Shown: positions 3 through 21,375 of the stretch, piece after piece | How positions within the stretch are numbered: position 1 is the stretch's first letter | Layout: each line of letters starts with the position of its first letter | DNA from: a virus | Reading direction: 5' to 3' (one strand) | IMG/VR virus record: IMGVR_UViG_3300025889_009691 | Location: 26,292-90,291 of that record | Length of the DNA stretch: 64,000 nt | Position numbers and translations under genes: made by a program | The notes under the pieces: generated by a model | Told to the model about the DNA's origin: nothing | The model's database searches: none | The model's input: the letters and a program-made list of their open reading frames with translations, nothing else

Positions 3-3000
3 GCGTATAAGGCTGTTGAGAAGGCTGCGAATACTGAGGCTGGTCGCTTGTCTGATAATCCTCCTCGTACTCCTGAGCAGCGGAGTCGGCAGGATGGTAT
101 TCTTGGTTTCTTGAGAGAGTTGATTTTGCGTTTCTTGGGTCTTTGGAATGAAGACTTTGAGCGTGAGCGTGCTGGTCGTCGTGATCGGGATGTTGTTCCG
201 GGTGATGAGGGTGTGCCGGGTGGCCCTGGTGGTGGCGGTCCTCGTCGTCCTAGAGCGCCGGGTGTGCCGGGTGATGGTCCTGATAGTCGTGCTCCTGATG
301 GTCGTACTCCTGATGGCCGCACTCCTGATCCTGATGATATTCCAGAGGCGCTTCAGCCCAAACCTGTTGGGGAGATGACTGATGGAGAGCTAGTTAGAGA
401 ATTCTTCAGATTACGGCATGGTAGCCCGGGGCTTCTCATTCCGGGTCAGCGTGACGAAGAAATGGATAGACGTAGGCTTCGTGAAATCAACGCTGAGCTT
501 CGCCGTAGAAATATTGACCCGTATAATCCTCAGACAATAACTTATACCCCTGCTGATGATGCTGACGATCCTGAAAAAATAATGGACGAGTTTGCACGAA
601 TTCTTCAAGAGTTCCGTGAGCGGGCTGAAGAATACAGAGTTTCTGGTGGCGGCAGAACCCTAGATTTTGTTGAGTCACTAGATGATGACGATTTAGATAA
701 ATACATCAATGCGTTTGAAACTGCTGCTGAGGCTATGGCTGACAACCCACAGTTTGATGATATTCGTGCGGCTTTGGAGCGTTTACGGGCTGAAAGAGAT
801 CGCCGCAACAGAAGCCGTAGTCTTGTTAATGCTAACTTGCGAGATCGTTTTGATCTTGAAACTGAAGAGGGCATGGCGGAAGCAATTCAGCATTTTTATG
901 ATCTAGCTGAGGAATATAACGCTAGAGACGCTATGACTGTAGAATTCATTCAACTTCTTAATGACGACGAAGTCGCTTTCTTCCAAGACGTATTTGATCA
1001 AGCGATTATTCAGTTCCCTGAGGTAGCGCAGCGTGATAATGCGTTTATGAAGATTGCTGCCCGCTTAGCGGATGAACGAGATCGTCGTGACCGCCTAAAC
1101 AAGGTGCCTGCCTCAGAGATTAAACCTGAAGATTATCAACGGGTCCTTGCTGAGATGGAAGCGCATATGGAGCGTTACAGGGTTGCTGGCGGCGGCATGA
1201 CTCTTGACTTCTTTAATGCTATTTCTGATGATGATTTGATTAAGTATCGGCGTGCTGTCCGTGATGCTATAGATGCTAATGCGGTTCCGGCTGATGAAAT
1301 CGGAAACTTGCAAGAGTTGCTGAAGCGTATGGATAACGAGTTTGATCGTCGTTTCCAAGGCCCAGGTAAGCGTCCTCGTATTGAGTCGGAAGAAAACAAC
1401 ATTAAGGATAAGTTTGATCTAGACGAAAACGCTGATTTGTTTGCGGTTATTGCCGAGTTCGAGAAGCGGGCTGCAGACTTTAAGGTTTCTGGCGGCGGCA
1501 TGACTCAAAACATGTTAGAGACTTTGAGTGATGACGAACTTGACGTTTTCTTTAATGCTCATCTGCGGCTATCGGACCTTTACGCAGCTGAAGGCCGTGA
1601 GGGGTTAGAAGACCTTGAGGAACTTATTGGCCGTCTTGCGGCGGAGCGTGATCGTCGTAGACTGCAGCAGGCTGCTTTTGATCCGGGGTCCCGATCTGAC
1701 CCTGATAGCCGTTCGTTGCGGAATGTAAATAATAGGTTCCCACGTAATGGTTTGCCGGGTCGTGCTTATTGGCGTGATGATGATTATAACGGTACTGATG
1801 CTGCTGAGTTGGATAGGCGTTTTGGTGGTTACTATGATGCTGATGGCAATTTGAATGATCGTGGCCGTGAGGTTAATCGTCGTCTTCGTCCTAGTGATCC
1901 TACTGATCCTAATGCTGGTGCCGGTGGTGCGCCGGAGCCGCCTGATCCGAATGATCCTGATGTTCTTGATCGGTTTAGTGATGATGAGCTTAGGGCGTTG
2001 ATTGAGGCTGGCGATGATTTTCCTTTCAATCTTCAACGTATTTCTGATGATGACTTGGTTCGTCTGGATAATATTACCGGCGAGATGGCGAGAGAAAACA
2101 TAAACGCTGGCAATCTGCGCAACTGGCGAGCGATCAGAGCCGAGTATAATGCTCTTGAGGATGGTACAAGAGACCCGAATCGTTTAGGTGTGAATGTTCC
2201 TGGGTCTGCGTCTAACAGGCCGCAGCGTCTGCCGGAATACAGAAATGACCCAGGCTTTAATACTCAGGGCCGGAGAGACCCTGTAAACATGCCTGAGCTT
2301 GATAATCTGACTCCTGAGCAGATTGATAACGTGGCGGGTGCGGCTGTTCGTGAGCATCAAGAAGTTCTGCAATTGATTCTCAATGAGGTTGGTCCTCTTC
2401 AGGATGGTTGGAATGTTGCTGATCTTGAAGCGGCAGTTCGTAGGAGGATAGAGGAGGAGGACTTCCCTCAGGCCGGTGCTCGCCTACTTACGTTACGACT
2501 TCAAGCGTTCCGTGAGTTGAACCAAATGGTTGATGGTCTACGGTTTGTTCGTGAAGAAGAAAGTTTTGATGCAAATGATACTGCTGCTCGTGCGGCTCGT
2601 GATTTAGATGTTTTGAAAGAGTATCTGCCATATCTTGCCCTAAATCGCCGTGAAGGTATTATGAATTTGCGTGATAACCCAGATGCGGCTCTTTCTCGAA
2701 TTGATCCAGACTTTGAGTTCCTTGTTGATGGTGCCCCTTCAGCTAATCGGGTAGTTGACGAACCAGAGGTTGATATTATATTTAACCGGGTTGATCCTGA
2801 TTATGATGATGCGCTTAATAGGTATGACGCTGACCCAGATCGCTTCCTTTCTGATCTTGATTTGTATTCTGCTGGAGACTTGTTAGACATGTTTGACGCT
2901 AGAGTCGGCGCTGGCGAAGTCGTTGATCCTAGCTTAAGAGCAGCATTAAAAGCCAGATATGCTGATTTGTTAAATATTAACGACGGCGATGTGGATGATC

Positions 3001-6000
3001 TGGCACGACGCATGGCGAACATGGATGATGCGATGCTGGATGATATGAGTCCTCGTGATCGTGCACTCCGGCAAGCCCGTTTGCGTGCAGGCAATGCGGG
3101 CCGTCCTCCGTCTAGAGCGGCTGCAGAGCAGGCTGACCGGTTGCGTGCTGCTGATCAGCGTCGTGCTGATGCTGACAGAGGCGGCATTCCTTCAGGGGGT
3201 CCTTTCGAGTTTACGGAAGGAATGACTAGCCGTGAGCGGTTTGATGCTGTTATTGATGCAGCAGATGCTGATCCTGCGGGCGTGAGATTACAGGGGTACT
3301 TAGAAAATATGTCTCCTGAAGAGTTTGGGCGTTTCGAACGTGAGTATGGTTCGTTATTGGCTTTTGCGGCTCAGCGTGACGCTAATGGCCTTTCTGAAGA
3401 TGATGTTCAACGGTATTTTGACTACTTAAGTGACGCTATGGACCGTGAGCGTGCTAGGCGTGGAAACATTAACCGTTTCCAGTTGGACAGAGATTTGCAG
3501 GATCGTTCCGATGAAGCTTTGGAAGCACACATAGAGCACTTACAAAACAGCAAAGCTTGGGGTCTTGACACGCTGGGTAGAGATGTTGATGAATTAGATG
3601 CTTTGATTAATAGACTTCAGAGTGAGGTAGAAGCTAGAAGACTTAGGAACCTGGGTAGTGTTACTCCTGACCTTGTGGATCAGCCTCGGCAGGGCGATGC
3701 CGCTGTAAGGGTGAGACTTAGAGACGCAATGTTTGAAGATAATATGAATGCTGATAAGATACCCGGTGCGAAAGCTATGCTGAGAAACGAACTTATGCTG
3801 GCAGAAGCTTCAACTAATGAAATGTTGCGGTATAGAGAACGCATTCTAAACAGCACGAATCTTTCTGACAGTCAGAAAGATGATCTGATGCGATCTTGGA
3901 ACCGTGCAATGCGGATCAGAGGAGATAGAAGTTTTGAAAGAAACCTTCCTCTGAATGAAAGGTCAGTTGAGGCTATTGATCGTCATTTAGAGTATGTTCA
4001 AGAACGTCTTGACAACATGGACCCAAACATCATAGACGAAAATGGTCTTCTTACTTTACGTGAGGAGCTTCTTGATGGTCGTGCGGTTGCGTCGGCTCGG
4101 GCGAATCTTGGAGACGCTGTTGATAACAAGCCGCAGTTGTCTGATAGATGGCGTAAGGTGGGTAGATGGAACTTCCTCAAAGCTAGACGGCAGCGTCAGC
4201 AGAAGCGTGAGCAGAAGATTAAAGACATTGCTGAGCGTCGTTATGGTGATAGGGAAACGCAGCCGTGGGATATTGGCGGGCGTGATGGCCTGAGTGCGAT
4301 GACTGATGCGCAAGTTGAATCACGAATCAGAGATGCGTTCTTGTTGGATACGGATCAGCCGGTTCAGGTTGGGTCTGTAGAGATTAATGGTAAGACGTAC
4401 ACGAAGCAGATTATTCCCACGACTGATGGCCGTGGCGATGGTGTTTTCATTTCTCGTGACGGCCCTCGTGGAGATATTCTGCAGATTGATGTTCAGTCTA
4501 GTATGAAATTCCAACTATTAGATTCTGATGGTAATGTTGTTGCTGAAGAAACTTATTCCGAAAACGATGGAGGGTTCCGGCTAGGCAGAATGTCTCGTAC
4601 CATCACTTGGGATGCGCAAGGTGACGGTAAGGTTAAGCATAATTTGTTAGGTACGAGCCGTGTTATACAGTTTGAGGGACAAGACATTTCGTTTGCCGGT
4701 GGCGGTTTCACTGAAGAGATGTTTAACAACAACTTGTTGTTCTATAGAAATATGGGTGTTAGCAAAGTTAAGGTTGGTGCTGTTGATGATGGCCGGGTTG
4801 TTTGGCCTCGCATTGGGTTTAGAGATGATAATCCTAACCATATTAGGAACCTTAACGAGGGTATGGTTGAGGTTTTGAAAGATTACAATGGCTATAAAGA
4901 AGCGAAACGTACAGGTATTGAACCTACGTTGAAGCAGCGTGCCGCAAAGGCTCTTATTCAGGATGATGTGAGGGCTGAACGTATTGAGGCTATGGTTGAG
5001 CCTTTATTGAACGTTGATGACCCAGTACGGGTGCTGGCTTCCATGGATGCTAGAGAAATTAATGAACTGCCAGACATGCATGATTTCATGTTGGCGTTGG
5101 AAGGCGAGGGTATTAGAAACTCTGTTGCGTTCCAGATGTTTAGAGGCGGTGGAGTTTACATCGGTAGAAACGTCGGTGACGACCCCGCTAACAATATTGG
5201 TGCTTTAGATGGAGATATGGTTGATCAGTTGCTTGCTGATGACCCTGAGCTAGCAGGTTTGACGCTTCCCAACCCGTTTAGGGGCACCACGTTCAGTGAC
5301 GGTACTTGGGATATTACAGATATTTTGAGTGATGCTGACGGCGATCCACGTCAGGTAACACCTGATTTGATTGATCCTTATGATCGTCCTCCAGAGCCGT
5401 CGATTCCTTCGATTCCTTCGGTACCTTCAGGACCTACTCCTCCTCCTCGTCAGAGCGACGCCAGACCGAATCAGAAATTAGACCCGAACTTTGATAGGGG
5501 CGAGCAGCGTCCGCTTCCAGCGGTTCCTGTGGGGGCGAATGGTATTGAGTCTGTTGATCAAGGTGCTGAGTGGATGAGAGATGGTAATAATGATGTTTCT
5601 GGTGTTCCTGATGAGTTCCTTAATCCTGTGGTTCTGGCGGTGTCTGATATTGGAGAAGACCGTTTAGGTCAGTATTCAAATGAGATGCTTGAAGAGTTGG
5701 TTGAAGAGTCTTTGGATGATTTGCCTTTTGATGTTACTCGTTTGTCTGATAATGACTTACAGCGGCTTGTGGGAGTAGTTGATCGTTTGTACGGTCAGAA
5801 CGGTTCAGGGTATAGACATGGGCAAGCGATTCGTGATGAACAAAACCGTGTCTTGCGACGTGACGACCGTGAACCAAATGCAAGGTTTGAAATGTTGGTT
5901 CCTGGGATGGGCATGGATGACGGTGGGGGTGTCAATAACAGAGGTAATGCAATAAATGGTGCGCAGCTTATAGTAGATACTGCTACTGGTCAGATATTTA

Positions 6001-6872
6001 TGATTAAGTTTAATGATGGGCGTTCATATGGTCGTGACGAAGACGGTAACGAACTAGTTGGCCGTGCGTTGATGATTCGTCTGGGCTTTGTTCAAGGGCA
6101 GATGAGGTTAGATGGGCCTGCAAATCCAAACGCTGCTAACCGAGACCCGTGGGATGATCCTGCTATTAACCCCGCTCGTGGCTTGATGGGTGAGGCTTTG
6201 CAGAATTACCTTCCTGAAGGCGCTACCGATATTATGATAGGTAGACGGAACCCGGGACAGTATGATTTCTCTAATGAGAACACTCTAGACGATGCAACTC
6301 ACATGATGCTGGGTGACGCTTTGTTGTTTAACAGTGATAGGCATGGTAGCAACTGGCTTCAGTACACGGATCGTGACGGAAATGTTAGACTTGTTCCTAT
6401 TGACATGGGCCTGACTTTGGGTGGCCGTGACGGAGAAGATGGGACTGATAATGACTTCTTTGGGGTTGAGTACCGTGATCCACGGACGGGTGACCTCGTA
6501 AGACTTAGCCCTGAAGAACAATTTGCTGCTCGTGCCGCTAATAGCAGAGGTCCCCGTTTAAGTGGCGATCTTTATAGTCAACTTGCAGCTGCTTCAGCAT
6601 CTGATCGGGCCGCTGTTGCGGCATCGTTTGATCGTGCCCTTGAAAGATTGCGGGCGGCTCAGAGTGCGGAAGATATGGAAAAGGTAATTGGCGATATTGT
6701 TGGTGCGCACGGTAACCTTGATAGCGATGGGTGGAAGCGATCTCAGGAGATGTTCTTAGAACGGTACGGCTGGTTAATGGAAACAGATTATACCGGAGAA
6801 GAACTTATGGACCTAGTTTTGTTTGGCAATTACAGAGGTATGCCTCAACGCCAGAGTAACGTTGGACTTTAG
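3..6872 (+). CDS. Giant multidomain (polyvalent-type) protein, 5'-truncated; helical repeats, GNAT-like domain, C-terminal HipA/PI3K-PI4K-like kinase
   Basis: Frame is open from nt 3 (AYKAVEKAANTEAGRL), so the TTG at 48 is not the start. Kinase motifs MIKF, NELVG, DRHGSN, IDMG; GNAT-like segment GGGF..FNNNLLFY..MG...VGAVDDG.V.W.RIGF. Confidence 0.75.
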   Translation, partial: AYKAVEKAANTEAGRLSDNPPRTPEQRSRQDGILGFLRELILRFLGLWNEDFERERAGRRDRDVVPGDEGVPGGPGGGGPRRPRAPGVPGDGPDSRAPDGRTPDGRTPDPDDIPEALQPKPVGEMTDGELVREFFRLRHGSPGLLIPGQRDEEMDRRRLREINAELRRRNIDPYNPQTITYTPADDADDPEKIMDEFARILQEFRERAEEYRVSGGGRTLDFVESLDDDDLDKYINAFETAAEAMADNPQFDDIRAALERLRAERDRRNRSRSLVNANLRDRFDLETEEGMAEAIQHFYDLAEEYNARDAMTVEFIQLLNDDEVAFFQDVFDQAIIQFPEVAQRDNAFMKIAARLADERDRRDRLNKVPASEIKPEDYQRVLAEMEAHMERYRVAGGGMTLDFFNAISDDDLIKYRRAVRDAIDANAVPADEIGNLQELLKRMDNEFDRRFQGPGKRPRIESEENNIKDKFDLDENADLFAVIAEFEKRAADFKVSGGGMTQNMLETLSDDELDVFFNAHLRLSDLYAAEGREGLEDLEELIGRLAAERDRRRLQQAAFDPGSRSDPDSRSLRNVNNRFPRNGLPGRAYWRDDDYNGTDAAELDRRFGGYYDADGNLNDRGREVNRRLRPSDPTDPNAGAGGAPEPPDPNDPDVLDRFSDDELRALIEAGDDFPFNLQRISDDDLVRLDNITGEMARENINAGNLRNWRAIRAEYNALEDGTRDPNRLGVNVPGSASNRPQRLPEYRNDPGFNTQGRRDPVNMPELDNLTPEQIDNVAGAAVREHQEVLQLILNEVGPLQDGWNVADLEAAVRRRIEEEDFPQAGARLLTLRLQAFRELNQMVDGLRFVREEESFDANDTAARAARDLDVLKEYLPYLALNRREGIMNLRDNPDAALSRIDPDFEFLVDGAPSANRVVDEPEVDIIFNRVDPDYDDALNRYDADPDRFLSDLDLYSAGDLLDMFDARVGAGEVVDPSLRAALKARYADLLNINDGDVDDLARRMANMDDAMLDDMSPRDRALRQARLRAGNAGRPPSRAAAEQADRLRAADQRRADADRGGIPSGGPFEFTEGMTSRERFDAVIDAADADPAGVRLQGYLENMSPEEFGRFEREYGSLLAFAAQRDANGLSEDDVQRYFDYLSDAMDRERARRGNINRFQLDRDLQDRSDEALEAHIEHLQNSKAWGLDTLGRDVDELDALINRLQSEVEARRLRNLGSVTPDLVDQPRQGDAAVRVRLRDAMFEDNMNADKIPGAKAMLRNELMLAEASTNEMLRYRERILNSTNLSDSQKDDLMRSWNRAMRIRGDRSFERNLPLNERSVEAIDRHLEYVQERLDNMDPNIIDENGLLTLREELLDGRAVASARANLGDAVDNKPQLSDRWRKVGRWNFLKARRQRQQKREQKIKDIAERRYGDRETQPWDIGGRDGLSAMTDAQVESRIRDAFLLDTDQPVQVGSVEINGKTYTKQIIPTTDGRGDGVFISRDGPRGDILQIDVQSSMKFQLLDSDGNVVAEETYSENDGGFRLGRMSRTITWDAQGDGKVKHNLLGTSRVIQFEGQDISFAGGGFTEEMFNNNLLFYRNMGVSKVKVGAVDDGRVVWPRIGFRDDNPNHIRNLNEGMVEVLKDYNGYKEAKRTGIEPTLKQRAAKALIQDDVRAERIEAMVEPLLNVDDPVRVLASMDAREINELPDMHDFMLALEGEGIRNSVAFQMFRGGGVYIGRNVGDDPANNIGALDGDMVDQLLADDPELAGLTLPNPFRGTTFSDGTWDITDILSDADGDPRQVTPDLIDPYDRPPEPSIPSIPSVPSGPTPPPRQSDARPNQKLDPNFDRGEQRPLPAVPVGANGIESVDQGAEWMRDGNNDVSGVPDEFLNPVVLAVSDIGEDRLGQYSNEMLEELVEESLDDLPFDVTRLSDNDLQRLVGVVDRLYGQNGSGYRHGQAIRDEQNRVLRRDDREPNARFEMLVPGMGMDDGGGVNNRGNAINGAQLIVDTATGQIFMIKFNDGRSYGRDEDGNELVGRALMIRLGFVQGQMRLDGPANPNAANRDPWDDPAINPARGLMGEALQNYLPEGATDIMIGRRNPGQYDFSNENTLDDATHMMLGDALLFNSDRHGSNWLQYTDRDGNVRLVPIDMGLTLGGRDGEDGTDNDFFGVEYRDPRTGDLVRLSPEEQFAARAANSRGPRLSGDLYSQLAAASASDRAAVAASFDRALERLRAAQSAEDMEKVIGDIVGAHGNLDSDGWKRSQEMFLERYGWLMETDYTGEELMDLVLFGNYRGMPQRQSNVGL

Positions 6873-6928
6873 CGTTTGTTGAGTACAGAAGTTTTGCTAT
6901 TTTCAGAAGATTAAGGTAGACTAACAAC

Positions 6929-7165
6929 ATGAAAAAATTTGGATTTTATGACTTAGACAACACTCTTGAAGGGACTGTTACTGAAACACCTGACGGCCTT
7001 GTTGCGGAAAATGTAGATAACCCGAAGTTTAAAGAGTTTATAGATTTTTTAATTGAATCTGATGGCGGGCAAGCTAGGACTGTAAGACAACTCACACGAT
7101 CAGGGTTCTCATACACAAGTATTAGAGAAATTCGAGATAAGCCTAAAGGTGGTGCAGCAACATGA
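6929..7165 (+). CDS. Hypothetical protein (78 aa)
   Basis: ORF; -10 hexamer TAGACT lies 6 nt before the ATG (leaderless layout). Confidence 0.7.
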   Translation: MKKFGFYDLDNTLEGTVTETPDGLVAENVDNPKFKEFIDFLIESDGGQARTVRQLTRSGFSYTSIREIRDKPKGGAAT

Positions 7166-7779
7166 TTAAACACTACATTTTAACGAAAAACGCTACGATG
7201 CTGCTTACCGTTTCTAGTCTTAACTCTGTAGAGTTTTTTGTTAAGCGTGGCTTTGAAGAAGAGGCAGCCGAACTTGAACTAGAGATGAGTATTCGGGCTA
7301 CCCGTGAGCCTGATACTGACATGTATACGCCCACAAGAATTAAGCGACGTTTTCCAGATGCTATTGAAGTAGATTCAGCTAAGTTTGAAGATGCTCGCAA
7401 AAAAGTTGAGCAGTTTAACGCTGATTATGATGATAATGTTGCTGAGCTTGAAGCTATGTCTTTAGAAGACTTAAAAACTTATATCTCCACGGCTCCTGCT
7501 AGAATGCCGAAACTAGTGAACTATAAGCAACTTAACGAGTTGTGGCAGGTGTTGTATGCTAGTAGTGAATCAGGGTTTATGGCTATTGATGAAGAGGACA
7601 GAGAAGACGAAGAAGTTAGAGAAGATATTCATGCGTTGTATACGTTGTTGAAAGATGCTGAGATTACTAACGACAACTCTTCGATTAAAGAAGTTTTGAA
7701 ATTAGCGAAGTTTGTTTCTCCTGATGCTATAGGTGTTACTTTTGAGGCAATTGAGCCGGAGGCTGAGGCTGATGGCTAA
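7162..7779 (+). CDS. Acidic hypothetical protein (205 aa)
   Basis: ATGA overlap with the upstream ORF; GGTGG SD-like sequence. Confidence 0.75.
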   Translation: MIKHYILTKNATMLLTVSSLNSVEFFVKRGFEEEAAELELEMSIRATREPDTDMYTPTRIKRRFPDAIEVDSAKFEDARKKVEQFNADYDDNVAELEAMSLEDLKTYISTAPARMPKLVNYKQLNELWQVLYASSESGFMAIDEEDREDEEVREDIHALYTLLKDAEITNDNSSIKEVLKLAKFVSPDAIGVTFEAIEPEAEADG

Positions 7780-9286
7780 GGACCCTTTAGAAGGACAGAC
7801 AGTACCCACGAAAGAAATGGCGGAAAACCTATCCGACATTTTAGGCTGTACGGGTGCTCACAAAGTCGGTGATGACGCTTGGGGTCCTTGCGAGTCCGCT
7901 GAAGATTTGCAGCAGCTTATCAAGCTAGGTAATCCTGCTTTTCGTGAATGGAAAGAACGGCAGGGAAAGAAAACTGGCAGTAAAGAAATGCTGCGGTTGA
8001 AAGCCGCTAAAGGAAAGAGCGTGTTTTCTTCTCGGGCTGAAGCGGAGCAGGCTGCTGTCAAGTTAGGTTGTTTTGGGGCGCATCAAACTGCTCAAGGCAA
8101 GTGGGCACCTTGTGCTACACCTGAAGAGCGTAATGCTGCCCAAGGTAACGGCGGCAATGGGTCTGCGAGAGTTATTCGTGCTCAGCGGCCTGCCCGCAGA
8201 ACTGTAACTAATGAGCGTAGGTGGGAGAATCTGCGTGAGCGTGGCCCACGTGGTATTGAAACTCTTCCCGGTGGCGGGCTTGTTTCTGGCAAGGCAGGTG
8301 TTTCGGATTCTTTTAAGCCGACTGCTGGTATGGTGTCGGAGGCTAAGAAGGGTTTGGAGTGGCGTAAAGAGTTTGGTCGTGGCGGCACTATGGTTGGTGT
8401 TGCTCGTGCTCGTGATATTGCGAACGGGAAGAACTTGCCGTATCGTACTGTGAAGCGGGTTAAGGCTTATTTTGATCGTCATCAGAGCGATTCAAAAGCT
8501 GGGGGTTACCGTCCGGGCGAGAAGGGGTTTCCTTCTAATGGGCGCATTGCTTGGGCTTTGTGGGGTGGCGATGCCGGTTATACTTGGGCGAAGGCTATTG
8601 TTCGTCGTGTAGAGGGCGGCGAGAAGACGACGTTTGACACTATTGAGGAAAAGCGGTTCTATACGCAGAAGCGTCGGGAAGAGTACGCTAAGCGGGGTTG
8701 GGCGCTTCCTGACGGGTCGTATCCGATTAGAGATGTTGGTGATTTGCGGAACGCTATCCAAGCTTACGGTTTAGGTAAAGATAGAGAGGCCGCTAAGCGT
8801 CACATTATGAAACGTGCCCGTGCTTTGGGTAGGACTGAGTTGATTCCAGATAATTGGAAAGTTCGTGAGAAGGCTGCTAGAAAGTATGGGCCGAATGATC
8901 CGAAGACTCCTGCTAAACCGTCTGAACGTATTAGCGGTTCACGTCGAAACAAGCCGGGTACTGCTGCAAATACTCGTGGGGGGATTAAACTTTCGGCTGC
9001 GGTTGAAAAGTCTTTGAAAGAAAAGGTTAAGACTCACAACGAGAAGATGACGAAACGGAATAAAGATAGCCGTAAAGTTACGCTCGGCATGTTAAAAGCT
9101 GTGTGGCGAAGAGGCGCTGGAGCGTTTTCGCAGACTCATCGCCCGAAGATGGGGCGGCAGCAATGGGCTATGGGCCGTGTCAATGCGTTTCTTAAGTTAA
9201 CGTCTAGCGGAAAACCATCAAATCCGAAGTATACAACCGACAACGACTTGCTTCCTAAAGGTCATCCACGGTCTACTCGCAAGTAG
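7772..9286 (+). CDS. Basic modular head-associated protein (two GCxGAH..WxPC modules plus three conserved phage head-region modules)
   Basis: Start reassigned to ATG 7772. DUF3721-like LGCxGAH...WxPC x2; GRGGT..G.ARA...RH...IAWALWGG module; ALPDGSYPI..DL.NAI module; LKAVWRRGAGA..WAMGRVNAFL module; lies immediately upstream of the capsid gene. Confidence 0.65.
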   Translation: MAKDPLEGQTVPTKEMAENLSDILGCTGAHKVGDDAWGPCESAEDLQQLIKLGNPAFREWKERQGKKTGSKEMLRLKAAKGKSVFSSRAEAEQAAVKLGCFGAHQTAQGKWAPCATPEERNAAQGNGGNGSARVIRAQRPARRTVTNERRWENLRERGPRGIETLPGGGLVSGKAGVSDSFKPTAGMVSEAKKGLEWRKEFGRGGTMVGVARARDIANGKNLPYRTVKRVKAYFDRHQSDSKAGGYRPGEKGFPSNGRIAWALWGGDAGYTWAKAIVRRVEGGEKTTFDTIEEKRFYTQKRREEYAKRGWALPDGSYPIRDVGDLRNAIQAYGLGKDREAAKRHIMKRARALGRTELIPDNWKVREKAARKYGPNDPKTPAKPSERISGSRRNKPGTAANTRGGIKLSAAVEKSLKEKVKTHNEKMTKRNKDSRKVTLGMLKAVWRRGAGAFSQTHRPKMGRQQWAMGRVNAFLKLTSSGKPSNPKYTTDNDLLPKGHPRSTRK

Positions 9287-9474: not shown

Positions 9475-10761
9475 ATGAGTTTTGATGAAAGCCGACTCAA
9501 CGAGCTGAAGTCTGCTCTTACCCAAAAGATGGATGAGCAGAAGCAGATCGCTGATTCGATGCAATTTGAGGGCACAACCCTCATCGCTGATGACGAAAAG
9601 AAGTCAGCATTCCAGAATAACATGACCCAGATTCGTGAGATCAAGGGTCTTATTGAGGACATGAGCACTCTTCGTGACGTGTCCGCTTGGTCTTCAGAGG
9701 CCGAGTACAAGTCAGTTGCTGCTGAGGTTGCTGCTGGCGTTGAGTCAGAGGTTTCTCGTCACCGTTCAGTCGGTGATGCGTTCCTTAACTCAGAGGAGTT
9801 CAAGTCACTTCAGGGTGGCAAGGCTGGCGTAAACATGACCTCTCCGTTCATGGCCAAGTCGCTTCAGCAGAAGGACCTTTACTCAGGTCTTCCTACTGGC
9901 ACTCCTGACGCTTTCGGCGCTATTGAGCGTGACGGTATCGTCCCGATTGCTCAGCGTCGTAGCCGTGTGCGTGACCTTTTCCCGGCACGTACCACCAACT
10001 CAGCGGTTGTTGAGTACTTCCGTCAGACCGGCTTCACGAACAACGCTTCAGTTGTTCCTGAGTACTCGTCAGGCAACTTCGGTGCCAAGCCTCAGTCAAC
10101 GATGACCTTCGTTGGTGAGCAGGCTCCGGTGCGGACGATTGCTCACTGGGAAGCCGCTCACCGTAACGTTCTTGCCGATGAGCCGCAGCTGCGTTCAATC
10201 ATCGACAACGAGCTTCTTTACGGTCTTCGTCTGACCGAGGATGCCCAGATTCTTTCCGGTGCTGGCACTGGTGAGGACCTTACTGGTATTCTCAACACCA
10301 CTGACATCCAGACCTACGCATGGTCTGATGGCGCAACTTCACCTGTTGCTGACACCAAGGCCGATGCTCTCCGTCGTGCGGCTACTCTGGCATACCTTGC
10401 CTACTACGAGCCGACCGGCATCATCGTCCACCCGTCAGACTGGGAAGACATTGAGCTTACCAAGAACTCACAGGGCACGTACCTTCTTGCCATGTCAGTT
10501 GCTGGTGGCGCTGAGTCACGTGTCTGGCGTATCCCCGTCATTGACACTCCGGCCATCGCTGAGGGTACCGCTCTTGTCGGTGCGTTCGGTACTGGCGCTC
10601 AGCTGTACGACCGTGAGGCTGCTTCAATCCGTATTTCGGAACAGCACTCAGACTTCTTCGTCCGCAACGCCATCGTGGTGCTTGCTGAAGAGCGTCTTGC
10701 CCTCGCTGTCAAGCGTCCCGAGGCGTTTGTGAAGGTCACCTTCGACGCCGAACCGAGCTGA
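9475..10761 (+). CDS. Major capsid protein, HK97 fold with N-terminal coiled-coil (delta-like) domain
   Basis: TAAGGAG SD; motifs RVRDLF, GAKPQS, VRTIAHW, EDAQILSGAGTG, HSDFFVRN..AEERLALAVKRPEAFV; strong codon bias. Confidence 0.95.
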   Translation: MSFDESRLNELKSALTQKMDEQKQIADSMQFEGTTLIADDEKKSAFQNNMTQIREIKGLIEDMSTLRDVSAWSSEAEYKSVAAEVAAGVESEVSRHRSVGDAFLNSEEFKSLQGGKAGVNMTSPFMAKSLQQKDLYSGLPTGTPDAFGAIERDGIVPIAQRRSRVRDLFPARTTNSAVVEYFRQTGFTNNASVVPEYSSGNFGAKPQSTMTFVGEQAPVRTIAHWEAAHRNVLADEPQLRSIIDNELLYGLRLTEDAQILSGAGTGEDLTGILNTTDIQTYAWSDGATSPVADTKADALRRAATLAYLAYYEPTGIIVHPSDWEDIELTKNSQGTYLLAMSVAGGAESRVWRIPVIDTPAIAEGTALVGAFGTGAQLYDREAASIRISEQHSDFFVRNAIVVLAEERLALAVKRPEAFVKVTFDAEPS

Positions 10762-11589: not shown

Positions 11590-11733
11590 CATGCTGCCAC
11601 GTTCATGGTAGCATGATCTAGCAAGATTTTTGCAACTCTCACAATGACTTGACGATTGTAGTTCATTGTGGGTGGCTACAATAGTAAAACCATTATTTTT
11701 ATACACACGTTCACAGCCATAGGAGGACATAAG

Positions 11734-13689
11734 GTGAACCCTTTTTTCATTTCAGACGACCACGCTAACGACTACGCAGACAAGATGCCTCCTTGGGGTT
11801 TCAACGGTCTGGGGTATGTAACGTATAAGCGTACTTATGCCCGACCTATTTTTGAAGGCAACACTGACGTTATTGAACGCACTGAGGAATGGCATGAGAC
11901 TATTCAGCGAGTTGTTAACGGTGCACAGAACATTGGTGCCCAGTTGACACAGGATGAGGCTGAGCGTCTGTATGATTACTTGTTTAACTTGAAGGGTTCT
12001 GTTGCTGGTCGAATGCTTTGGCAGTTAGGTACTCCTAACAACCAGCGTTTGGGCGGCGACTCACTTGTGAACTGCTGGTTTGTTGACGTTCAGAAGCCTT
12101 CAGATTTTTCGTGGTCTGTTGAGCGCCTTATGCTTGGCGGCGGCGTAGGATTCTCATGCGATAAGCCTGAGCGTCTTGGTGTCGTCCGTAGTGCGTGGGT
12201 TTCCCATCAGGATGAGAACGATTCAGATTTCATTGTTCCTGATACTCGTGAGGGATGGGCTGAACTGATCCGTAAGGTGTTTGAATGCTACCTTGGCGAT
12301 GATGACAACCCTCGCTGGATGACATATGCAACTCATTTGATTCGTCCCGCTGGAGTTCCCATTAAGACGTTTGGTGGAACTGCTTCAGGACCTGAAATTC
12401 TTATCTCTGGTGTTGAAAAGATTTGCAAGGTGCTAGACGGTGCTGTTGGCCGCACGCTTACTTCCGTTGAGGTTCTTGACTGCATGAACATCATTGGCTC
12501 TATTGTTGTTGCCGGTAACGTTCGTCGCAGCGCTGAAATTGCGGTTGGCCGTCTTGACGATGAAGATTACCTGATGGCGAAGCGTTGGGACCTTGGCGAT
12601 ATTCCTATTGAGCGGGCCATGTCGAACAATACTGTTTTTGTTTCTCCTGAAGAAATGAAGGATATGCCTGATTTGATTTGGGAAGGGTACAAGGGCAACG
12701 GCGAACCTTACGGGTTCTTTAACCTAGAAGCTTCACGTCAGTTTGGCCGCATGGGCGAAGAGCGTCCTGATCCTTCAATTGTTGGCGTTAACCCTTGCGC
12801 TGAAATCCCTCTGGCTAACCGTGAGTCGTGCAATCTGTCTGAGATTTTCCTTCCCATGATTGATTCACCTGAGCAGCTTAAGGATGTTGCCAAGTTGCTG
12901 TACAAGGTCCAGAAGGCTACTGCCGCTTTGTCGTACCTTGATCCTGCGTCTGATAAGATCACTTCTCAGAACATGCGTTTGGGTCTTGGTATTACTGGTG
13001 TTGCTCAGGCTCTTGACAAGATTGATTGGCTAGATGAGACTTACACTGAACTGCGTGAGTTGGATGCTGCGTGGTCAGAGGAGCGTGGCTGGCCTGAGTC
13101 TGTTCGTCTTACCACGATTAAGCCTTCTGGTACGCTTAGCCTTCTTCCCGGTGTGACCCCCGGTGTTCACCCCGGCTTTAGCCAGTACTTCGTTAAGCGT
13201 ATGCGTATGTCTGCTACGGATGTGCTTGTAAACTACTGCAGGTCAAAGGGGTTCTATGTAGAGCCTCTGCGTAACTTTGATGGTTCAGAAGATCATCGGA
13301 CGGTGGTTGTAGAGTTCCCTTGTGCGTTCCCTGAGGGCACTGTGTTGGCTGAGGATATGACTGCTATTGAGCAGATGGACCTTGTTCGCCGTTTGCAGAA
13401 GGTTTGGGCAGACAACGCTATTTCGGTGACTGTCTACTACAAGAGCGAAGAGCTTGACGGTATCCGTGAGTACCTTGCGGAGCATTGGAGCGAGATGAAG
13501 TCTGTTTCGTTCTTGCTGCATAGCGAGCACGGGTTTGATCAGGCCCCTATGGGGGAGTTGACGAAGGACGAGTATGAAACCGTGCTTAAGACCACTTCGC
13601 CTCTTGGAGAGAAGCTTACTGGTTCAACTATCATGTCGGACGACGAGTTCGATGCGGAGTGCGCCACTGGAGCTTGCCCTATCCGATAA
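11734..13689 (+). CDS. nrdJ: Adenosylcobalamin-dependent (class II, RTPR-type) ribonucleotide reductase
   Basis: AGGAGG SD before GTG 11734; motifs YKRTYAR, GRMLWQLG, NCW, VAGNVRRSA, NPCAEI, TTIKPSGT, C-terminal ECATGACPIR. Confidence 0.93.
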   Translation: MNPFFISDDHANDYADKMPPWGFNGLGYVTYKRTYARPIFEGNTDVIERTEEWHETIQRVVNGAQNIGAQLTQDEAERLYDYLFNLKGSVAGRMLWQLGTPNNQRLGGDSLVNCWFVDVQKPSDFSWSVERLMLGGGVGFSCDKPERLGVVRSAWVSHQDENDSDFIVPDTREGWAELIRKVFECYLGDDDNPRWMTYATHLIRPAGVPIKTFGGTASGPEILISGVEKICKVLDGAVGRTLTSVEVLDCMNIIGSIVVAGNVRRSAEIAVGRLDDEDYLMAKRWDLGDIPIERAMSNNTVFVSPEEMKDMPDLIWEGYKGNGEPYGFFNLEASRQFGRMGEERPDPSIVGVNPCAEIPLANRESCNLSEIFLPMIDSPEQLKDVAKLLYKVQKATAALSYLDPASDKITSQNMRLGLGITGVAQALDKIDWLDETYTELRELDAAWSEERGWPESVRLTTIKPSGTLSLLPGVTPGVHPGFSQYFVKRMRMSATDVLVNYCRSKGFYVEPLRNFDGSEDHRTVVVEFPCAFPEGTVLAEDMTAIEQMDLVRRLQKVWADNAISVTVYYKSEELDGIREYLAEHWSEMKSVSFLLHSEHGFDQAPMGELTKDEYETVLKTTSPLGEKLTGSTIMSDDEFDAECATGACPIR

Positions 13690-14420: not shown

Positions 14421-14435
14421 TTTTAGAATATTGTT

Positions 14436-14801: not shown

Positions 14802-14832
14802 CATGGTAGACGCTATTCACTAATATAGTTCT

Positions 14833-16229: not shown

Positions 16230-16287
16230 GCGGATTTTTAGTCGTCACTTAGCTATTTAGCTTTGTATTATTCTTGGCAGGTCGTGA

Positions 16288-16929: not shown

Positions 16930-16930
16930 C

Positions 16931-17440: not shown

Positions 17441-17441
17441 A

Positions 17442-18314
17442 ATGATGTCAGGACCTAGATTAGCAAAATCATATGTGTCGAATTATCTCGTTAATGACAT
17501 TCCGGGTAGGCTGCTTACGTATCGGAATCATTGGGGATTGAGTTCTTCTCAGCTTCCTGAGCCACGTAAGTATTTGTCGTATGAGCCGTTTGCTTTGGAT
17601 GCTTGGCCGACGTTAATTACGTTGGCTATTAGTACCGGCAATATTGAGCGGACTGATTATGCTGTTGATGCTGATCCTATTTTTAGGGTGACGTATCAAA
17701 TGCGTACTTATGTTTGGGTGCGTGATAGCGGTGGTCAGATTGTGACTGATCAGCGAGATAATCTTGTTGCTGTTGTTCGTGAAGCGCTTATGGACGGACC
17801 TTCGTTGTCTGCGTATGACTCGTCTGTTCCGTGCTATCCGAAGATTGATGAGTCTTCAATTCGTGAAGAGTTTTCTGATTTGACTTTGATCAAGGGTGAG
17901 CGTTTGCTAGCTGGCGCTTTTGTAGGTTATGATCTGTCTTTGGAAGAACGTGTAGATCATGATCCTCTTGGTGTGATGCAGTCTACGCAGGTAACTGTAG
18001 AGAAGATGGCGATCACCGCTAATGCTCCCACGAATCTTATTGCGGTTGCTGGAGATACTGAAGTTACTTTGTCTTGGACAGATTCAACATGGAACGGCGG
18101 CGTGTACGATATTACTGGATATAACATTCAGCAGTCTTCAGATTCTGGTTCTACGTGGACGACTGTTGTGAGCGATACTGATTCTTTGGATACGGCTTAT
18201 ACTGTTACGGGTTTGACTAATGGCACGTCGTATCAGTTTAGGGTTGCTTCTGTTAATCAGGCTGGAGTGGGAGCGTATTCGGCTAGTAGCCTTGCTAAAA
18301 CACCGACTGCGTGA
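17442..18314 (+). CDS. Tail-completion/terminator-like protein with a C-terminal fibronectin type III domain
   Basis: Position; FN3 signature APTNL.A.AGD.EVTLSW...ITGY.IQ...YTVTGLTNGTSYQFRV.SVN..G.G.YS. Confidence 0.7.
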   Translation: MMSGPRLAKSYVSNYLVNDIPGRLLTYRNHWGLSSSQLPEPRKYLSYEPFALDAWPTLITLAISTGNIERTDYAVDADPIFRVTYQMRTYVWVRDSGGQIVTDQRDNLVAVVREALMDGPSLSAYDSSVPCYPKIDESSIREEFSDLTLIKGERLLAGAFVGYDLSLEERVDHDPLGVMQSTQVTVEKMAITANAPTNLIAVAGDTEVTLSWTDSTWNGGVYDITGYNIQQSSDSGSTWTTVVSDTDSLDTAYTVTGLTNGTSYQFRVASVNQAGVGAYSASSLAKTPTA

Positions 18315-18326
18315 TAGGATAATACT

Positions 18327-21194
18327 ATGGCTATTGGTAGTGGTAGATGGGGCGGGTTGCGTCAAGAGCCGTATAATCCTAACCCTAAAGATGCTGATAA
18401 TGACGGTATTGTTCAAGAAGGTACGCCGTTTGAGCGGCCTATTGGCACCCGGTATTTGAATGCTGCGGGCGAGGAAATTTCTAGTCTCTTAAACGGGTCT
18501 AATGTTTCTCAGTTGGACGGATTGCGCCTGGTTGATGCTAACGATAATCCTGTTGAGTATCGACAGTCGTGGCGGAGCGAAAATCTTGCGTTGGGTGAAC
18601 GTCAGGAGACTATTGGTCAGTCGTTGGGGACTGTTGGGCAAACGCTGGGGACTGTTGATGAAGTTCCTGCTACTGGTGATTATAGGATTGAGCATCGTCC
18701 GCCTGGAAGGGGAGAAGGTGCACCGTTGCATGCTTTGGATCAGATTTATCCACCGGATGTTTATTCTGCGGACGCTATGAGGCTGTATGGGTCTGGTGTG
18801 CGGGCGGATGCTGCTAAAGATCGTGAGATGGCTGAAGTTATTAGTCGTGTTCGTGGTAACCCTGACGCTGAAGTGATTATGTATCGTGCTGTACCTGTGG
18901 ATGGTGTGGATACTATTAACGCTGGTGATTGGGTTACCCCTTCTAGGTTGTATGCTGTTGAACATGGTGAGGGTCCGATGCGTGGCGAGTATCGTATCAT
19001 TGAGATGCGTGTGCGTGCCGGTGACTTACATACGGACGGTAACTATATTTACGAGTTTGGTTATGATCCGATGCCTACGGCAAAACCAATTGATGACCGT
19101 GACTTGAGTCCTGCAGCTAAAGAGTTGCATGACGATATCATTCCGTCGTGGAGGTCAGGTGATGAAGCATGGGCTGATTTCCCCGATCTAGAAGAACGTG
19201 GTATTGCTCTCATCGACGCTTACGAAAACGGCGAGATTGACGTTTATGACTATGAGTCTAGTTACATTGAAATAGTGACTGAAGGTTTAGAGCGTCGGTT
19301 GGAATCTATTAGACAAGTGTATGGTGCAGAAACTGGTGACGTGTTAGACGCTTGGGTGCGTGGCGACTACGGGGCGACCGAAAGTATCCGTGACGGCATC
19401 AGTGAGGGGCAGTATAGTGGCTTAATTGAATTAATTGATGATTCGCCGCCTCAAGAAACGCTGTGGCGTGGCATGATGATTGATGCTGAGACGCAGCAGC
19501 GTATGGAAGCTGCGGGGGTTATCTCTATGCCTTTAGGTGCCACGTCTTCAAATGAGAGAGCTGCTGGCGAGTATGCTGGCTTGTCGGTTACTGGCGGTGG
19601 GCCGTCATCTGTTATGATTAAGGTTGAGGGCGCTAATGCGTTTCCTGCGAGAACTATTTCGCCTGTAGAGTCTGATGATGAGTGGCTGGTTGCTGGCGAT
19701 TTTGAGATTGTTTCTGTTGATGAGTATGTTCAGCCGGGTGCGTTTGCTGACGCTACTCCGATTAAGCAGTGGACTGTTCGTCCTCGCCGTAAGTCTGATC
19801 CTGAAAGTCCGAGAGCTAATGTTCCGAAGGCTAAGGAGATGCGTCCCCAGGACAAAGGTGTGATGTTTTCTTCTTTGGATAAGGATGGTGTTAGATCGAC
19901 GGATGACAAGGTTGTTCACCCTAATGGCACGTTGTCAATTGAGGGTATGAATGCTGATGGGTCTTTTGTTGAGTTTAGTGAAGAGTTAGAAAAGAAACTT
20001 GATGCCCGTTTTGAAGAGTTGGGTATTAGCCGAGATGAACTTACTTTGAACTTGGCTCATTCCGCCATGATAGCAATGGGTTATGACCCTGTTACTGGTG
20101 AGTTTGATCCTGAAAAAGTTAAAGAGGGTTTAGAAAAGTCACGGTGGTATTCAGAGCAAGGTGATCGGCTTCGTGCTTTGGCTGATGCACAAGATGTGGA
20201 TTTGGAACGTGTAGTAGCGGCGGCCACGGTAATGTCTGCGGGTCGTCTATGGGATGGTCCTGCTAACGGCAATTATGAGAGTACTGAACGACTTATCAAC
20301 ATTTTGAAAGCTGATGAACCTATTGAGATTACTCCAGCTATGGCAGAGTTTCTGGCTTGGCGTAAGGGTAAAGCAACTAAGAAGACAAGCAGTTTGGGTT
20401 TTCACCAAGATTTAAAGCCGGGTCAGTCTATTCGTCCGTCTGAGTTAGACTCTGCACAGTTAGTTGAAGTTTTGTATGCCGCTAATAGCATGCGAGGCTA
20501 CACTTCGTTTAAGGATTGGAAGCGAGATTCTGATACTGGTACGAAAACCCCTAAAGGTTATACGGGTGTTGAGTCTCCGTATCCGTTGTTTACGTCTAAG
20601 GGTACACTGCAGGTTAAGCAAGCTGTTGCTGTTTTGCGTGGCGATGTGACAGTACGTGATGCTATTTCTGGGCCAAAGTATTCTAGTTTTTATTCCAATC
20701 TTTTGCGCCCTGATCTTGATTATAGTTCGACCAATGATACTTGGCATTACAGGGTAATGGCCGGTAATGCGGTATTGAATCCGCTTACGAATAAAAATAA
20801 GCTTGGTTCGGGTACCATGCGAGAACTAACACTAAAAACTGAGGCAAAGTTTGGGCATTGGGAAATTGATGAAGAAACAGGCGTAAGAACGTGGAAGGCT
20901 TACACGGCTACAGCACAGGATTTGTTCCAGAGTGGTTTATCTTCAAAACCAAATGGGCTTGGTTCTGGCGACTTAATGTTCCGTGATAGCACAAAAATTT
21001 CAAGAGGGGCATTAGCTTCGCTTAAAGCGGCTCACCCAGAAATTTTTGGAGATATGACATTACACGAAATGCAAGCATTAGTTTGGGTTCACTATGGCGG
21101 AGGCACTATGAGCGCTGATGAGGGCCTGGATATTTGGGGTGATGCTTTGAGTAAGTTGCCTGTTGACGGGGCCTGGATTGACCTGATAGACTAG
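18327..21194 (+). CDS. Multidomain effector-like protein: two ADP-ribosyltransferase-like domains and a C-terminal HhH-glycosylase-like domain
   Basis: YRAVP..IN.GDWVT..YA..HG..E.GY domain; LWRG..ATSS..DDEWL (R-S-E ART triad); WY..AA..S..GPK..F..DTWH..QA.VW domain. Confidence 0.6.
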   Translation: MAIGSGRWGGLRQEPYNPNPKDADNDGIVQEGTPFERPIGTRYLNAAGEEISSLLNGSNVSQLDGLRLVDANDNPVEYRQSWRSENLALGERQETIGQSLGTVGQTLGTVDEVPATGDYRIEHRPPGRGEGAPLHALDQIYPPDVYSADAMRLYGSGVRADAAKDREMAEVISRVRGNPDAEVIMYRAVPVDGVDTINAGDWVTPSRLYAVEHGEGPMRGEYRIIEMRVRAGDLHTDGNYIYEFGYDPMPTAKPIDDRDLSPAAKELHDDIIPSWRSGDEAWADFPDLEERGIALIDAYENGEIDVYDYESSYIEIVTEGLERRLESIRQVYGAETGDVLDAWVRGDYGATESIRDGISEGQYSGLIELIDDSPPQETLWRGMMIDAETQQRMEAAGVISMPLGATSSNERAAGEYAGLSVTGGGPSSVMIKVEGANAFPARTISPVESDDEWLVAGDFEIVSVDEYVQPGAFADATPIKQWTVRPRRKSDPESPRANVPKAKEMRPQDKGVMFSSLDKDGVRSTDDKVVHPNGTLSIEGMNADGSFVEFSEELEKKLDARFEELGISRDELTLNLAHSAMIAMGYDPVTGEFDPEKVKEGLEKSRWYSEQGDRLRALADAQDVDLERVVAAATVMSAGRLWDGPANGNYESTERLINILKADEPIEITPAMAEFLAWRKGKATKKTSSLGFHQDLKPGQSIRPSELDSAQLVEVLYAANSMRGYTSFKDWKRDSDTGTKTPKGYTGVESPYPLFTSKGTLQVKQAVAVLRGDVTVRDAISGPKYSSFYSNLLRPDLDYSSTNDTWHYRVMAGNAVLNPLTNKNKLGSGTMRELTLKTEAKFGHWEIDEETGVRTWKAYTATAQDLFQSGLSSKPNGLGSGDLMFRDSTKISRGALASLKAAHPEIFGDMTLHEMQALVWVHYGGGTMSADEGLDIWGDALSKLPVDGAWIDLID

Positions 21195-21198
21195 ATTT

Positions 21199-21375
21199 AT
21201 GAATCCTAATAATTCCCCCATGACAGATGACGGCAGTTTTGATTTTGACAGTCTGGAAGATGACGATGAGCGTTGGGAATATGCACAGTACATCGTAAAC
21301 ACTCCTGCTGAAGACCGGCCTGAAATTTCTGAAGAAGATGCTGCAGCCGCTTTAGAATGGTTACGTTATTCTTAG
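21199..21375 (+). CDS. Small highly acidic protein (58 aa; not in the ORF track)
   Basis: MNPNNSPMTDDGSFDFDSLEDDDERWEYAQYIVNTPAEDRPEISEEDAAAALEWLRYS; begins 4 nt after the upstream stop. Confidence 0.6.
   Translation: MNPNNSPMTDDGSFDFDSLEDDDERWEYAQYIVNTPAEDRPEISEEDAAAALEWLRYS

Follow-up and report, generated by a model that had tools for sequence, protein, structure and literature searches.

Ugi, p56 and SAUGI are small acidic phage proteins that inhibit uracil-DNA glycosylase; they target the family-1 enzyme of the host and are not known to be encoded beside it. Precedents for virion-delivered phage enzymes are the ADP-ribosyltransferase (ART) Alt of phage T4 (PMC9503650), the MuF toxins with their immunity genes (PMC5576092) and the polyvalent proteins (PMC5512222), the last of which include a kinase of the truncated Ser/Thr-kinase clade. 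Here we analysed a stretch of 64,000 nt, hereafter the window, from the IMG/VR virus record IMGVR_UViG_3300025889_009691. It corresponds to bases 26292-90291 of a 90.3-kb viral contig (working label L001; CheckV completeness 61%) and holds two large enzyme-type genes among the virion genes: one for a protein of 3051 amino acids (aa), termed the giant, and o955. Small acidic open reading frames (ORFs) follow each of them, o78 and o205 after the giant (isoelectric points 5.0 and 4.45) and o58 after o955 (4.05). An original prediction made from this DNA had noted these acidic ORFs, which we find as described, and had proposed that both large proteins are injected and that the small ORFs provide their inhibitors or chaperones.

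Our analysis narrowly favours the following explanation of the locus as a whole. Two polyvalent-type modular multi-enzyme genes would be embedded in the head-neck-tail module and expressed with the late genes. Of these, o955 would join a widespread N-terminal module (N-module), a ubiquitous viral domain (domain 1), an Alt/VIP2-type ART (domain 2) and an N-glycosylase domain related to DUF7178 (domain 3). The o58 product would bind domain 3, most likely as a small acidic inhibitor and possibly as a mimic of DNA or of a nucleotide, and would thereby protect the DNA or nucleotides of the phage itself from the N-glycosylase. The o78 and o205 products would be either partners of the giant's kinase or head-assembly proteins.

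Domain 3 of o955 and its small acidic neighbour

A domain-3 profile search of viral and metagenome contigs returned six loci (L092-L097) from five lineages. An acidic ORF of 54-68 aa directly follows domain 3 in all six, with a start that overlaps the domain-3 stop (by 1-4 nt) or is located 4 nt beyond it. The six products are 31-35% identical to o58 and share with it the motifs SP.T.D, (D/E)E.W and (I/L)S.E(E/D)A. L093 and L094 are closely related to the window; in the other four (L092, L095, L096, L097), away from any neck/sheath setting, domain 3 is encoded on its own, by stand-alone genes of 514-791 aa whose N-terminus differs.

Two further relatives of the phage lack domain 3, each in its own way. 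In G001, the N-module, domain 1 and the ART are kept and followed by an unrelated third domain of 530 aa and then by an unrelated ORF of 119 aa (L003:4001-7096 and 7106-7465), which may form a second cassette/partner pair; this alternative third domain gave no family or structure match and was located in its own contig only. In G002, the o955 homologue ends after domain 1, and only 123 nt, with no small ORF, remain before the sheath gene. Since o58 is present with domain 3 and is swapped or lost with it, it is tied to this domain and not to the ARTs or to the virion position. Judged from these gene arrangements, o58 is a dedicated cognate partner of domain 3 across diverged phages, and the C-terminal part of o955 behaves as an exchangeable cassette. 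The predicted pairing of o58 with the upstream gene thus held in related phages. The proposed reason, silencing of the enzymes during assembly, does not account for it, because the pairing persists in non-virion contexts.

A deep search with o955 retrieved 3130 relatives at E <=0.001, and the AlphaFold-type model of the protein has a predicted local distance difference test score (pLDDT) of 80. The best fold match of domain 3 is the nucleotide glycosylase QNG1/DUF2419 (7ugk, Z-score 9.0 over 233 aligned residues; 7u07, 8.4), and the 8-oxoguanine glycosylase Tm1821 OGG is matched over 183 of 209 residues (3n0u, 8.3). Z-scores to EndoIII, MagIII, AGOG, MutY and NTHL1 range from 5.9 to 7.1, values that are moderate for a helical domain but come from a family-consistent list. 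Lys784 of a GPK motif and Asp804 of STND-T-W-H-Y-R, 20 residues apart, are invariant in eight sequences; the counterpart stretch of Escherichia coli EndoIII (Nth) reads GRK...VDTHIFRV with a spacing of 18. A Lys and an Asp of the HhH motif are reported as the sole residues invariant between QNG1 and DNA glycosylases (PMC9881137), and we infer that Lys784 and Asp804 are their equivalents. In one of the stand-alone domain-3 genes (L092:2860-5235) an intein sits exactly between the Asp and the Thr of STNDTW (junction ...SSTND / C...GQ / TWHYR...), which marks this motif as a functionally critical site.

At the family level, the cut-off of Pfam DUF7178 (PF23802), a family not mentioned in the literature searched, is passed by homologues such as P0010 (35 bits) and P0034 (81.5 bits), and 8 of 52 alignment members match it. 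Profile searches against the sequences of solved structures gave no match for domain 3 and only chance-level matches for the homologue P0007, and domain 3 was absent from the genome contigs searched. From the model and the conserved residues, domain 3 is predicted to be an HhH-GPD/QNG1-like N-glycosylase fold related to DUF7178, in line with the glycosylase-like domain first proposed for o955. The stand-alone domain-3 proteins (L092, L095:2713-4257, L096 and P0008-P0010) start with the conserved motif (E)FACHSAACRPP.SGGTGGS, which also heads a second small ORF downstream of the terminase gene (L095:6728-7042) and may serve as a common signal for targeting or processing.

The other domains of o955 and the giant protein

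Fold searches with model residues 251-491 matched domain 2 to HopU1 (Z-score 10.3; 154 aligned residues, root-mean-square deviation 4.6), Tre1 (9.6), Vis (8.9), SpvB (8.0) and VIP2 (7.7), and also to XopAI, C2-I and C3; Foldseek gave probabilities of 0.96-1.0 to CDTa, C3larvin, Vis and Certhrax. Among viral models, matches were to the T4-type 'RNA polymerase-ADP-ribosyltransferase' and to ARTs fused to MuF/head-morphogenesis, minor-capsid or portal proteins. The motifs L(W/Y/F)RGM, GA(T/S)S and (D/E)xE(W/F/H)LV are kept in this order in 13 aligned sequences, the third reading DDE in this phage and ENE, EEE or EDE in relatives. Pfam ADPrib_exo_Tox (PF03496) did not match o955 at E <=0.1. Because fold and conserved triad agree, the prediction of domain 2 as an ART of the Alt/VIP2/C3 (R-S-E) type is confirmed at the level of the model.

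The original prediction had counted two ART-like domains in o955. Domain 2 is one of them; for the other, domain 1, the designation is a motif-based guess. Domain 1 has the invariant motifs YRA.P, GDW., YA..HGE and E.G and is ~50% identical in most of the best 150 of its 2138 relatives (E <=1e-10), where it occurs alone or in polyvalent-type giants with GNAT and NUDIX domains. It is a stand-alone gene of ~118 aa in the right (non-structural) arm of ~160 mycobacteriophage genomes. Homologues such as gene 127 of Mycobacterium phage Cjw1 and gp206 of Rhodococcus phage E3 are annotated as hypothetical or, like the PHROG family itself, as 'ParB C-terminal domain'. No Pfam model covers domain 1, and ART-PolyVal (PF18760) did not match it even at E 10; a profile search found no match among the sequences of solved structures, and the fold matches listed all concern other o955 domains. 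Atlas leads reached just 0.78, to ART-PolyVal and PARP clusters. An ART motif composed of R187, T204-S206 and E243 is a possible reading. The homologue P0012 carries a GNAT domain beside an ART; its PF03496 match barely passed (23.6 versus 23.4 bits), and its BLAST match, which covers o955 aa 117-360, from domain 1 into the beginning of domain 2, touches only the start of the PF03496 region.

The N-module is defined by the motif DADNDG-(I/V)VQEGT-FERP (aa 15-41, window 18369-18450), which heads or sits inside many modular phage proteins. In total, 109 viral-contig stretches (including loci L011-L086) encode a relative of the o955 N-terminal query, mostly matching in the motif region only. The general form, (N/D)P.(A/D).D.D(G/N)DG(I/V)VQEGT.(F/W)ERP, usually lies close to the N-terminus in long modular proteins; in some ORFs of 78-100 aa it is C-terminal. 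The motif looks like a calcium-binding-type loop. The cargo of other carriers includes a DEDDh exonuclease, DUF3626 and canonical DUF7178. We rejected this DxDxDG module as a mark of virion proteins, as its carriers elsewhere adjoin primase, thymidylate synthase and 3'-phosphoadenosine 5'-phosphosulfate (PAPS)-reductase genes.

The giant, located between the prohead protease and capsid genes, is composed of a conserved N-terminal part of 800 aa, a long acidic helical centre and a GNAT-like plus kinase-like C-terminus. The N-terminal 800 aa are its best conserved part (70-93% of columns invariant in three sequences), and the C-terminal third diverges fast. Full-length homologues in relatives measure 3015 aa (71% identity), 2796-2802 aa (53%) and 2347 aa; the 2140-aa homologue P0017 is perhaps incomplete. 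Family libraries returned few matches, with a single small PHROG match at the N-terminus and none from NCBIfam. Within the conserved 800 aa, the motif (F/Y)RCPPG...GG.F.....(S/N)CG occurs twice (aa 245-268 and 613-636; L001:10740-10810 and L001:11844-11915), each copy preceded by an Arg/Gly-rich basic stretch.

The C-terminus of the giant shows the kinase motif set (beta3 Lys, alphaC Glu, D.H..N loop and DFG-like Asp) in the order and at the spacing canonical for kinases, and these hallmarks, together with the Arg of the loop and the Gly after the DFG-like Asp (positions in Table 1), are invariant in five sequences down to 31% identity. Pfam PI3_PI4_kinase matched the catalytic-loop part below its cut-off (E 0.028; 14.8 bits versus 27.1). 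An AlphaFold model of residues 2200-3051, built from five sequences, is poor (pLDDT 55) and has an order of secondary-structure elements compatible with a kinase. With residues ~2580-3040 of this model, an unbiased structure search matched atypical kinases exclusively: PI4KIIalpha (Z-scores 6.5 and 6.3), CotH (6.0), HipA (5.9), actin-fragmin kinase (5.6) and further CtkA, Vps34, SMG1 and ATM. The same search with residues ~2200-2550 listed only acetyltransferases at Z-scores of 5.0-5.9, led by KKT23 (5.9) and CoA-bound PA3270 (5.6) and including NatD, p300, Elp3 and FeeM; Foldseek added HAT1 (E 0.05) and Rv0998. The GGG and W..GF columns of this region are invariant in the five-sequence alignment, and no Pfam family matches it.

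Because motifs, Pfam region and fold lists agree, and with no single Z-score sufficing alone, the C-terminus is likely to be an atypical PI3/4-kinase/HipA/CotH-like kinase, and residues ~2216-2549 are, with less assurance, plausibly GNAT-like. The 'GNAT-like plus kinase' assignment first made for this gene is therefore retained in tentative form: the fold lists are consistent and the kinase motifs invariant, and the leading Z-scores of 5.9-6.5 come from a model with pLDDT 55. As a query, the kinase domain found no stand-alone homologue among candidates of 248-791 aa, in the viral-contig scan or in GenBank phages.

Gene context and alternative readings

Library scans of the ORFs identify window positions 1-23500 as a myovirus-type morphogenesis module (Table 1); complete relatives have genomes of ~137 kb. 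The five ORFs of the original prediction (3-6872, 6929-7165, 7162-7779, 18327-21194 and 21199-21375) are present, and two large enzyme-type ORFs do lie within the morphogenesis cluster, in the protease/capsid and the neck/sheath intervals. The first of them is clipped by the window edge, and the ATG of the complete gene lies 2283 nt before it. The ribonucleotide reductase (RNR) gene has the capsid gene on one side and head-tail connector genes on the other, and it is kept in two relatives; therefore, non-structural genes do occur within the structural cluster. Among GenBank phages, megablast found no nucleotide-level relative of the 21 kb, and tblastn found no match for the giant N-terminus, the giant C-terminus or domain 3. 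NCBIfam returned no match on eight proteins of the module, the giant included. The phage is an uncultured marine myovirus; isolated-phage homologues of o955 domain 1 come almost only from phages of Mycobacterium, Gordonia and Rhodococcus, in agreement with an actinobacterium as its probable host.

Table 1. Features of the locus; positions refer to the window unless marked L001.
Feature	Position	Strand	Remarks
Large terminase	upstream of window	-	
Portal and MuF-like head-morphogenesis ORF	upstream of window		same module
S78 prohead protease	L001:6398-7957, upstream of window		520 aa
608-aa protein	L001:7991-9814, upstream of window		
Giant, final 2289 codons	1-6872	+	whole gene L001:10008-19163, 3051 aa
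GNAT-like region of giant	4362-5363	+	aa ~2216-2549; invariant GGG/F..YR..G and W..GF pattern
Kinase-like domain of giant	5886-6833	+	aa ~2724-3039; Lys2764, Glu2779, DRHxxN 2874-2879, IDMG Asp2896
o78	6929-7165	+	78 aa; stop overlaps o205 start (ATGA)
o205	7162-7779	+	205 aa
Major head protein	9475-10761		428 aa
Ribonucleotide reductase	11668-13689		phrog_367, E 2e-131
Head-tail adaptor, neck and Ig-like tail proteins	inside window module		
o955	18327-21194	+	955 aa; between neck and sheath genes
o955 N-terminal module	18327-18656	+	aa 1-110; mostly low-confidence/disordered
o955 domain 1	18669-19076	+	aa 115-250, ~135 aa; YRAVP, GDWVT, YA..HGE, E.G
o955 domain 2	19116-19799	+	aa 264-491; predicted R-S-E ADP-ribosyltransferase; Arg381, GATSS 404-408, Asp450-x-Glu452
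o955 domain 3	19902-21164	+	aa 526-946; predicted HhH-GPD/QNG1-like fold; invariant GPK (Lys784), STND(T)W (Asp804)
Promoter-like TTGACG-18-TAGACT	21163-21192	+	inside o955 end, 6 nt before o58 ATG
o58	21199-21375	+	58 aa; 29% Asp+Glu
Tail sheath, then tube	21421-23007		inside window module; positions of the sheath gene

The o78-o205 pair had also been credited with a -10 element of its own. A conserved TAGACT does stand 7 nt before the o78 ATG, and a TTGACG-18-TAGACT site precedes o58 (Table 1). Promoter-like sites in the region do not exceed chance (24 observed versus 19.4 +/- 4.2 in shuffles), and TANNNT at about -12 occurs in roughly a third of the 21 genes checked (o955, o121, o129 and o170 among them; in the sheath gene and o245 its position is -11). 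Thus, the hexamer is a feature of the phage and not special to the small ORFs. Many of the genes have a TANNNT hexamer that ends ~6-7 nt before a start lacking a Shine-Dalgarno sequence (6917-6922, 14424-14429, 14821-14826, 18315-18320, 21187-21192 and 24374-24379), and other genes of the module carry a clear AAGGAG, which suggests a mix of leaderless and Shine-Dalgarno-led genes.

As judged from gene order and conservation, o78 and o205 are genuine genes, translationally coupled and co-conserved with the giant; o205 in turn overlaps the basic o517, and the coupling order o78-o205-o517 is kept in two relatives. In the two relatives that retain the giant, identities are 53% and 35% for o78 and 70% and 28% for o205, a divergence similar to that of the giant C-terminus (41% and 29%) and far faster than that of the capsid protein (96% and 89%). 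In viral contigs, a profile scan located o205 in this phage clade only, and the Atlas gave no usable match for it. Thus, of the conserved partners foreseen by the original prediction, all three small ORFs are conserved in relatives and o58 tracks domain 3, but o78 and o205 have no independent context. The motif (L/M)S.(D/E)(D/E)L, common to o205 and the giant repeats, was dismissed as an ordinary helix-capping pattern.

Of the alternative readings, the one that survives best is that o78, o205 and o517 serve in head assembly or inside the head, as proteins of a scaffold or core kind with no tie to the kinase, and follow the giant only because all prohead-core genes are grouped between the protease and capsid genes; we rate it as a serious possibility falling somewhat short of even. 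It draws on the position of o78 and o205 between the protease and the major head protein, their translational coupling to o517, the scaffold-like acidity and fast evolution of o205, and their confinement to this clade. In addition, the C-terminal extension of the prohead protease, the 608-aa protein and o517 (window 7733-9286, twice) share the Cys/His motif of Pfam DUF3721 (LGC.G.H....YMPC..H), which may form a zinc knuckle shared by proteins of the head core. However, the 428-aa capsid protein may hold its own delta domain, so that a separate scaffold would perhaps be needless, o205 is not an obvious long coiled coil, and neither o78 nor o205 matches scaffold families in PHROG, Pfam or the Atlas. 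Pfam and NCBIfam likewise detected no helix-turn-helix (HTH) family in either. Both genes occur in this clade only, and a head-assembly role is as good an explanation as that of a kinase partner.

A second alternative concerns domain 3 and o58, which would form a two-subunit enzyme acting on nucleotides or DNA bases, with o58 as activating or specificity subunit, an incidental fusion to the ART and nothing injected. Such an enzyme might, like QNG1, remove or salvage a base from nucleotides, or it might act on modified DNA. The neighbourhoods of the stand-alone pairs speak for it, with a deoxynucleoside monophosphate (dNMP)-kinase-like P-loop gene upstream in three of the four stand-alone loci and RNR (L092) or the large terminase (L095, L096) downstream; so do the QNG1 fold match, the RNR in this phage's own late cluster and the intein at the active-site motif, a placement typical of essential replication and nucleotide enzymes. 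We nevertheless regard this reading as less likely. Domain 3 shares its polypeptide with an ART and with a module that also occurs in DEDDh-exonuclease and NUDIX/GNAT polyvalent proteins, and close relatives can do without it (replaced in one, absent in one), as would be expected of an accessory conflict function more than of core metabolism.

Several of our results weigh against the favoured explanation of polyvalent-type genes with o58 as a putative inhibitor. A housekeeping enzyme plus subunit would explain the intein and the nucleotide-metabolism neighbours no less well than a toxin plus inhibitor would. The DUF7178 match of o955 itself, at 16.7 bits, stays below the cut-off of 27; hhalign found no similarity between domain 3 and E. 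coli EndoIII, so that the EndoIII-like motif is a resemblance seen by eye; and in the poor model of the giant C-terminus every Z-score is below 7. Moreover, the late cluster includes RNR, N-module proteins of other phages adjoin primase or thymidylate synthase, and domain 1 is a small right-arm gene in the cluster-E-type mycobacteriophages. Because domain 3 can be exchanged as an accessory module and is joined to domains of the conflict type, the inhibitor reading of o58 appears slightly ahead of the subunit reading.

A more far-reaching form of the inhibitor reading, which we consider improbable, would make the 54-68-aa acidic proteins a new inhibitor family, perhaps of DNA or nucleotide mimics, for a new family of phage N-glycosylases with the HhH-GPD fold, related to DUF7178. 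The enzyme and the Alt-like ART, on a virion-delivered carrier, would attack host DNA or nucleotides on entry, and the inhibitor would protect the producing cell and the phage genome. If o58 is indeed an inhibitor, it would be, to our knowledge, the first dedicated protein inhibitor for the HhH-GPD superfamily.

Virion delivery of either large protein is plausible by analogy, the Alt, MuF-fused ART and polyvalent precedents being strong. The neck/sheath position of o955 is conserved in G001, G002, L093 and L094, and the giant lies between the protease and capsid genes, positions that fit late expression and are compatible with packaging. MuF (PF04233) matched neither o955 nor the giant, and only 1 of 52 o955 homologues has such a match; neither protein has a portal fusion. 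Homologues of the N-module, of domain 1 and of domain 3 are found in non-structural neighbourhoods in other phages. By our estimate, there is an even chance that the giant is packaged in the virion, and packaging of o955 is rather doubtful. Position inside the virion gene cluster is thus weak evidence for packaging in this phage group.

The weakest reading is the original proposal in full, with packaging and injection of the giant and of o955 and, from each small ORF downstream, a cognate inhibitor or chaperone that keeps them silent during assembly. It can appeal to the conserved late-cluster position, the Alt, MuF and polyvalent precedents, the ART homologues fused to MuF, portal or minor capsid proteins and the co-variation of o58 with domain 3, but is very unlikely given that neither large protein has a MuF or portal fusion, that the o58 pairing is found without any virion context and that no partner was seen for the ART, the GNAT-like region or domain 1.

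Comparison with known systems

Phage takeover enzymes are a source of new biochemistry and tools. Domain 3 and o58 represent a directly testable enzyme/partner pair across diverged uncultured phages, and the locus offers a concrete example on which to ask if ADP-ribosylation, phosphorylation and base-excision chemistry are brought into the host by marine actinophages when they infect.

The two large genes resemble the polyvalent proteins that phages and conjugative elements encode (Iyer et al. 2017, PMC5512222): several conflict-type enzyme domains (ART, GNAT, kinase and nucleases) share a polypeptide, lie beside virion genes and are shuffled between relatives, and the GNAT next to an ART noted there recurs in the homologue P0012. 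At least two effector-type domains are found per phage polypeptide encoded with virion genes, and homologues carry DEDDh, GNAT, NUDIX and DUF3626 domains. In contrast, the ART-PolyVal described there is of the H-Y-D type and the ART predicted here of the R-S-E (Alt/VIP2) type, with PF18760 undetected in o955, and the putative kinase is PI3/4K/HipA/CotH-like instead of belonging to the truncated Ser/Thr-kinase clade. In the portions of PMC5512222 considered, we met no HhH-GPD/DUF7178 glycosylase domain paired with a small partner of its own.

With T4 Alt (PMC9503650), domain 2 shares the fold of the ART clade and the triad, and both genes lie among late genes; Alt is packaged in the head, whereas the ART here is one module of a four-part protein encoded between the neck and sheath genes. 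The MuF polymorphic toxins (Jamet et al. 2017, PMC5576092) likewise have a conserved N-terminus, a C-terminal enzyme domain that varies and, downstream, a small gene varying along with it, but no MuF domain is present in o955 or the giant, and the contig studied here looks like one of a lytic-type marine phage. QNG1 and the HhH-GPD glycosylases (PMC9881137) match domain 3 in their two-lobe helical fold (Z-scores 6-9), and the invariant Lys and Asp of domain 3, ~20 residues apart, lie in a stretch GPK...ND(T)W that resembles GRK...VDTH of EndoIII. No sequence-profile similarity to domain 3, which measures ~420 residues with large insertions, was detectable.

The HipA/HipB toxin-antitoxin pairs also join an atypical kinase with a D.H..N loop to small adjacent genes; here, the putative kinase lies at the end of a head-module protein of 3051 aa, and the small genes lie downstream with no HTH family detected. 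The o58 product resembles the phage proteins Ugi, p56 and SAUGI in its very small size, its strong acidity and its functional link to an enzyme of glycosylase fold, which it may inhibit; unlike them, it is encoded beside its partner enzyme, and it has no homology to them. Thus, with the polyvalent and toxin/immunity themes already known, the new element of this locus is a predicted glycosylase-fold domain related to DUF7178 that travels with a dedicated tiny acidic partner.

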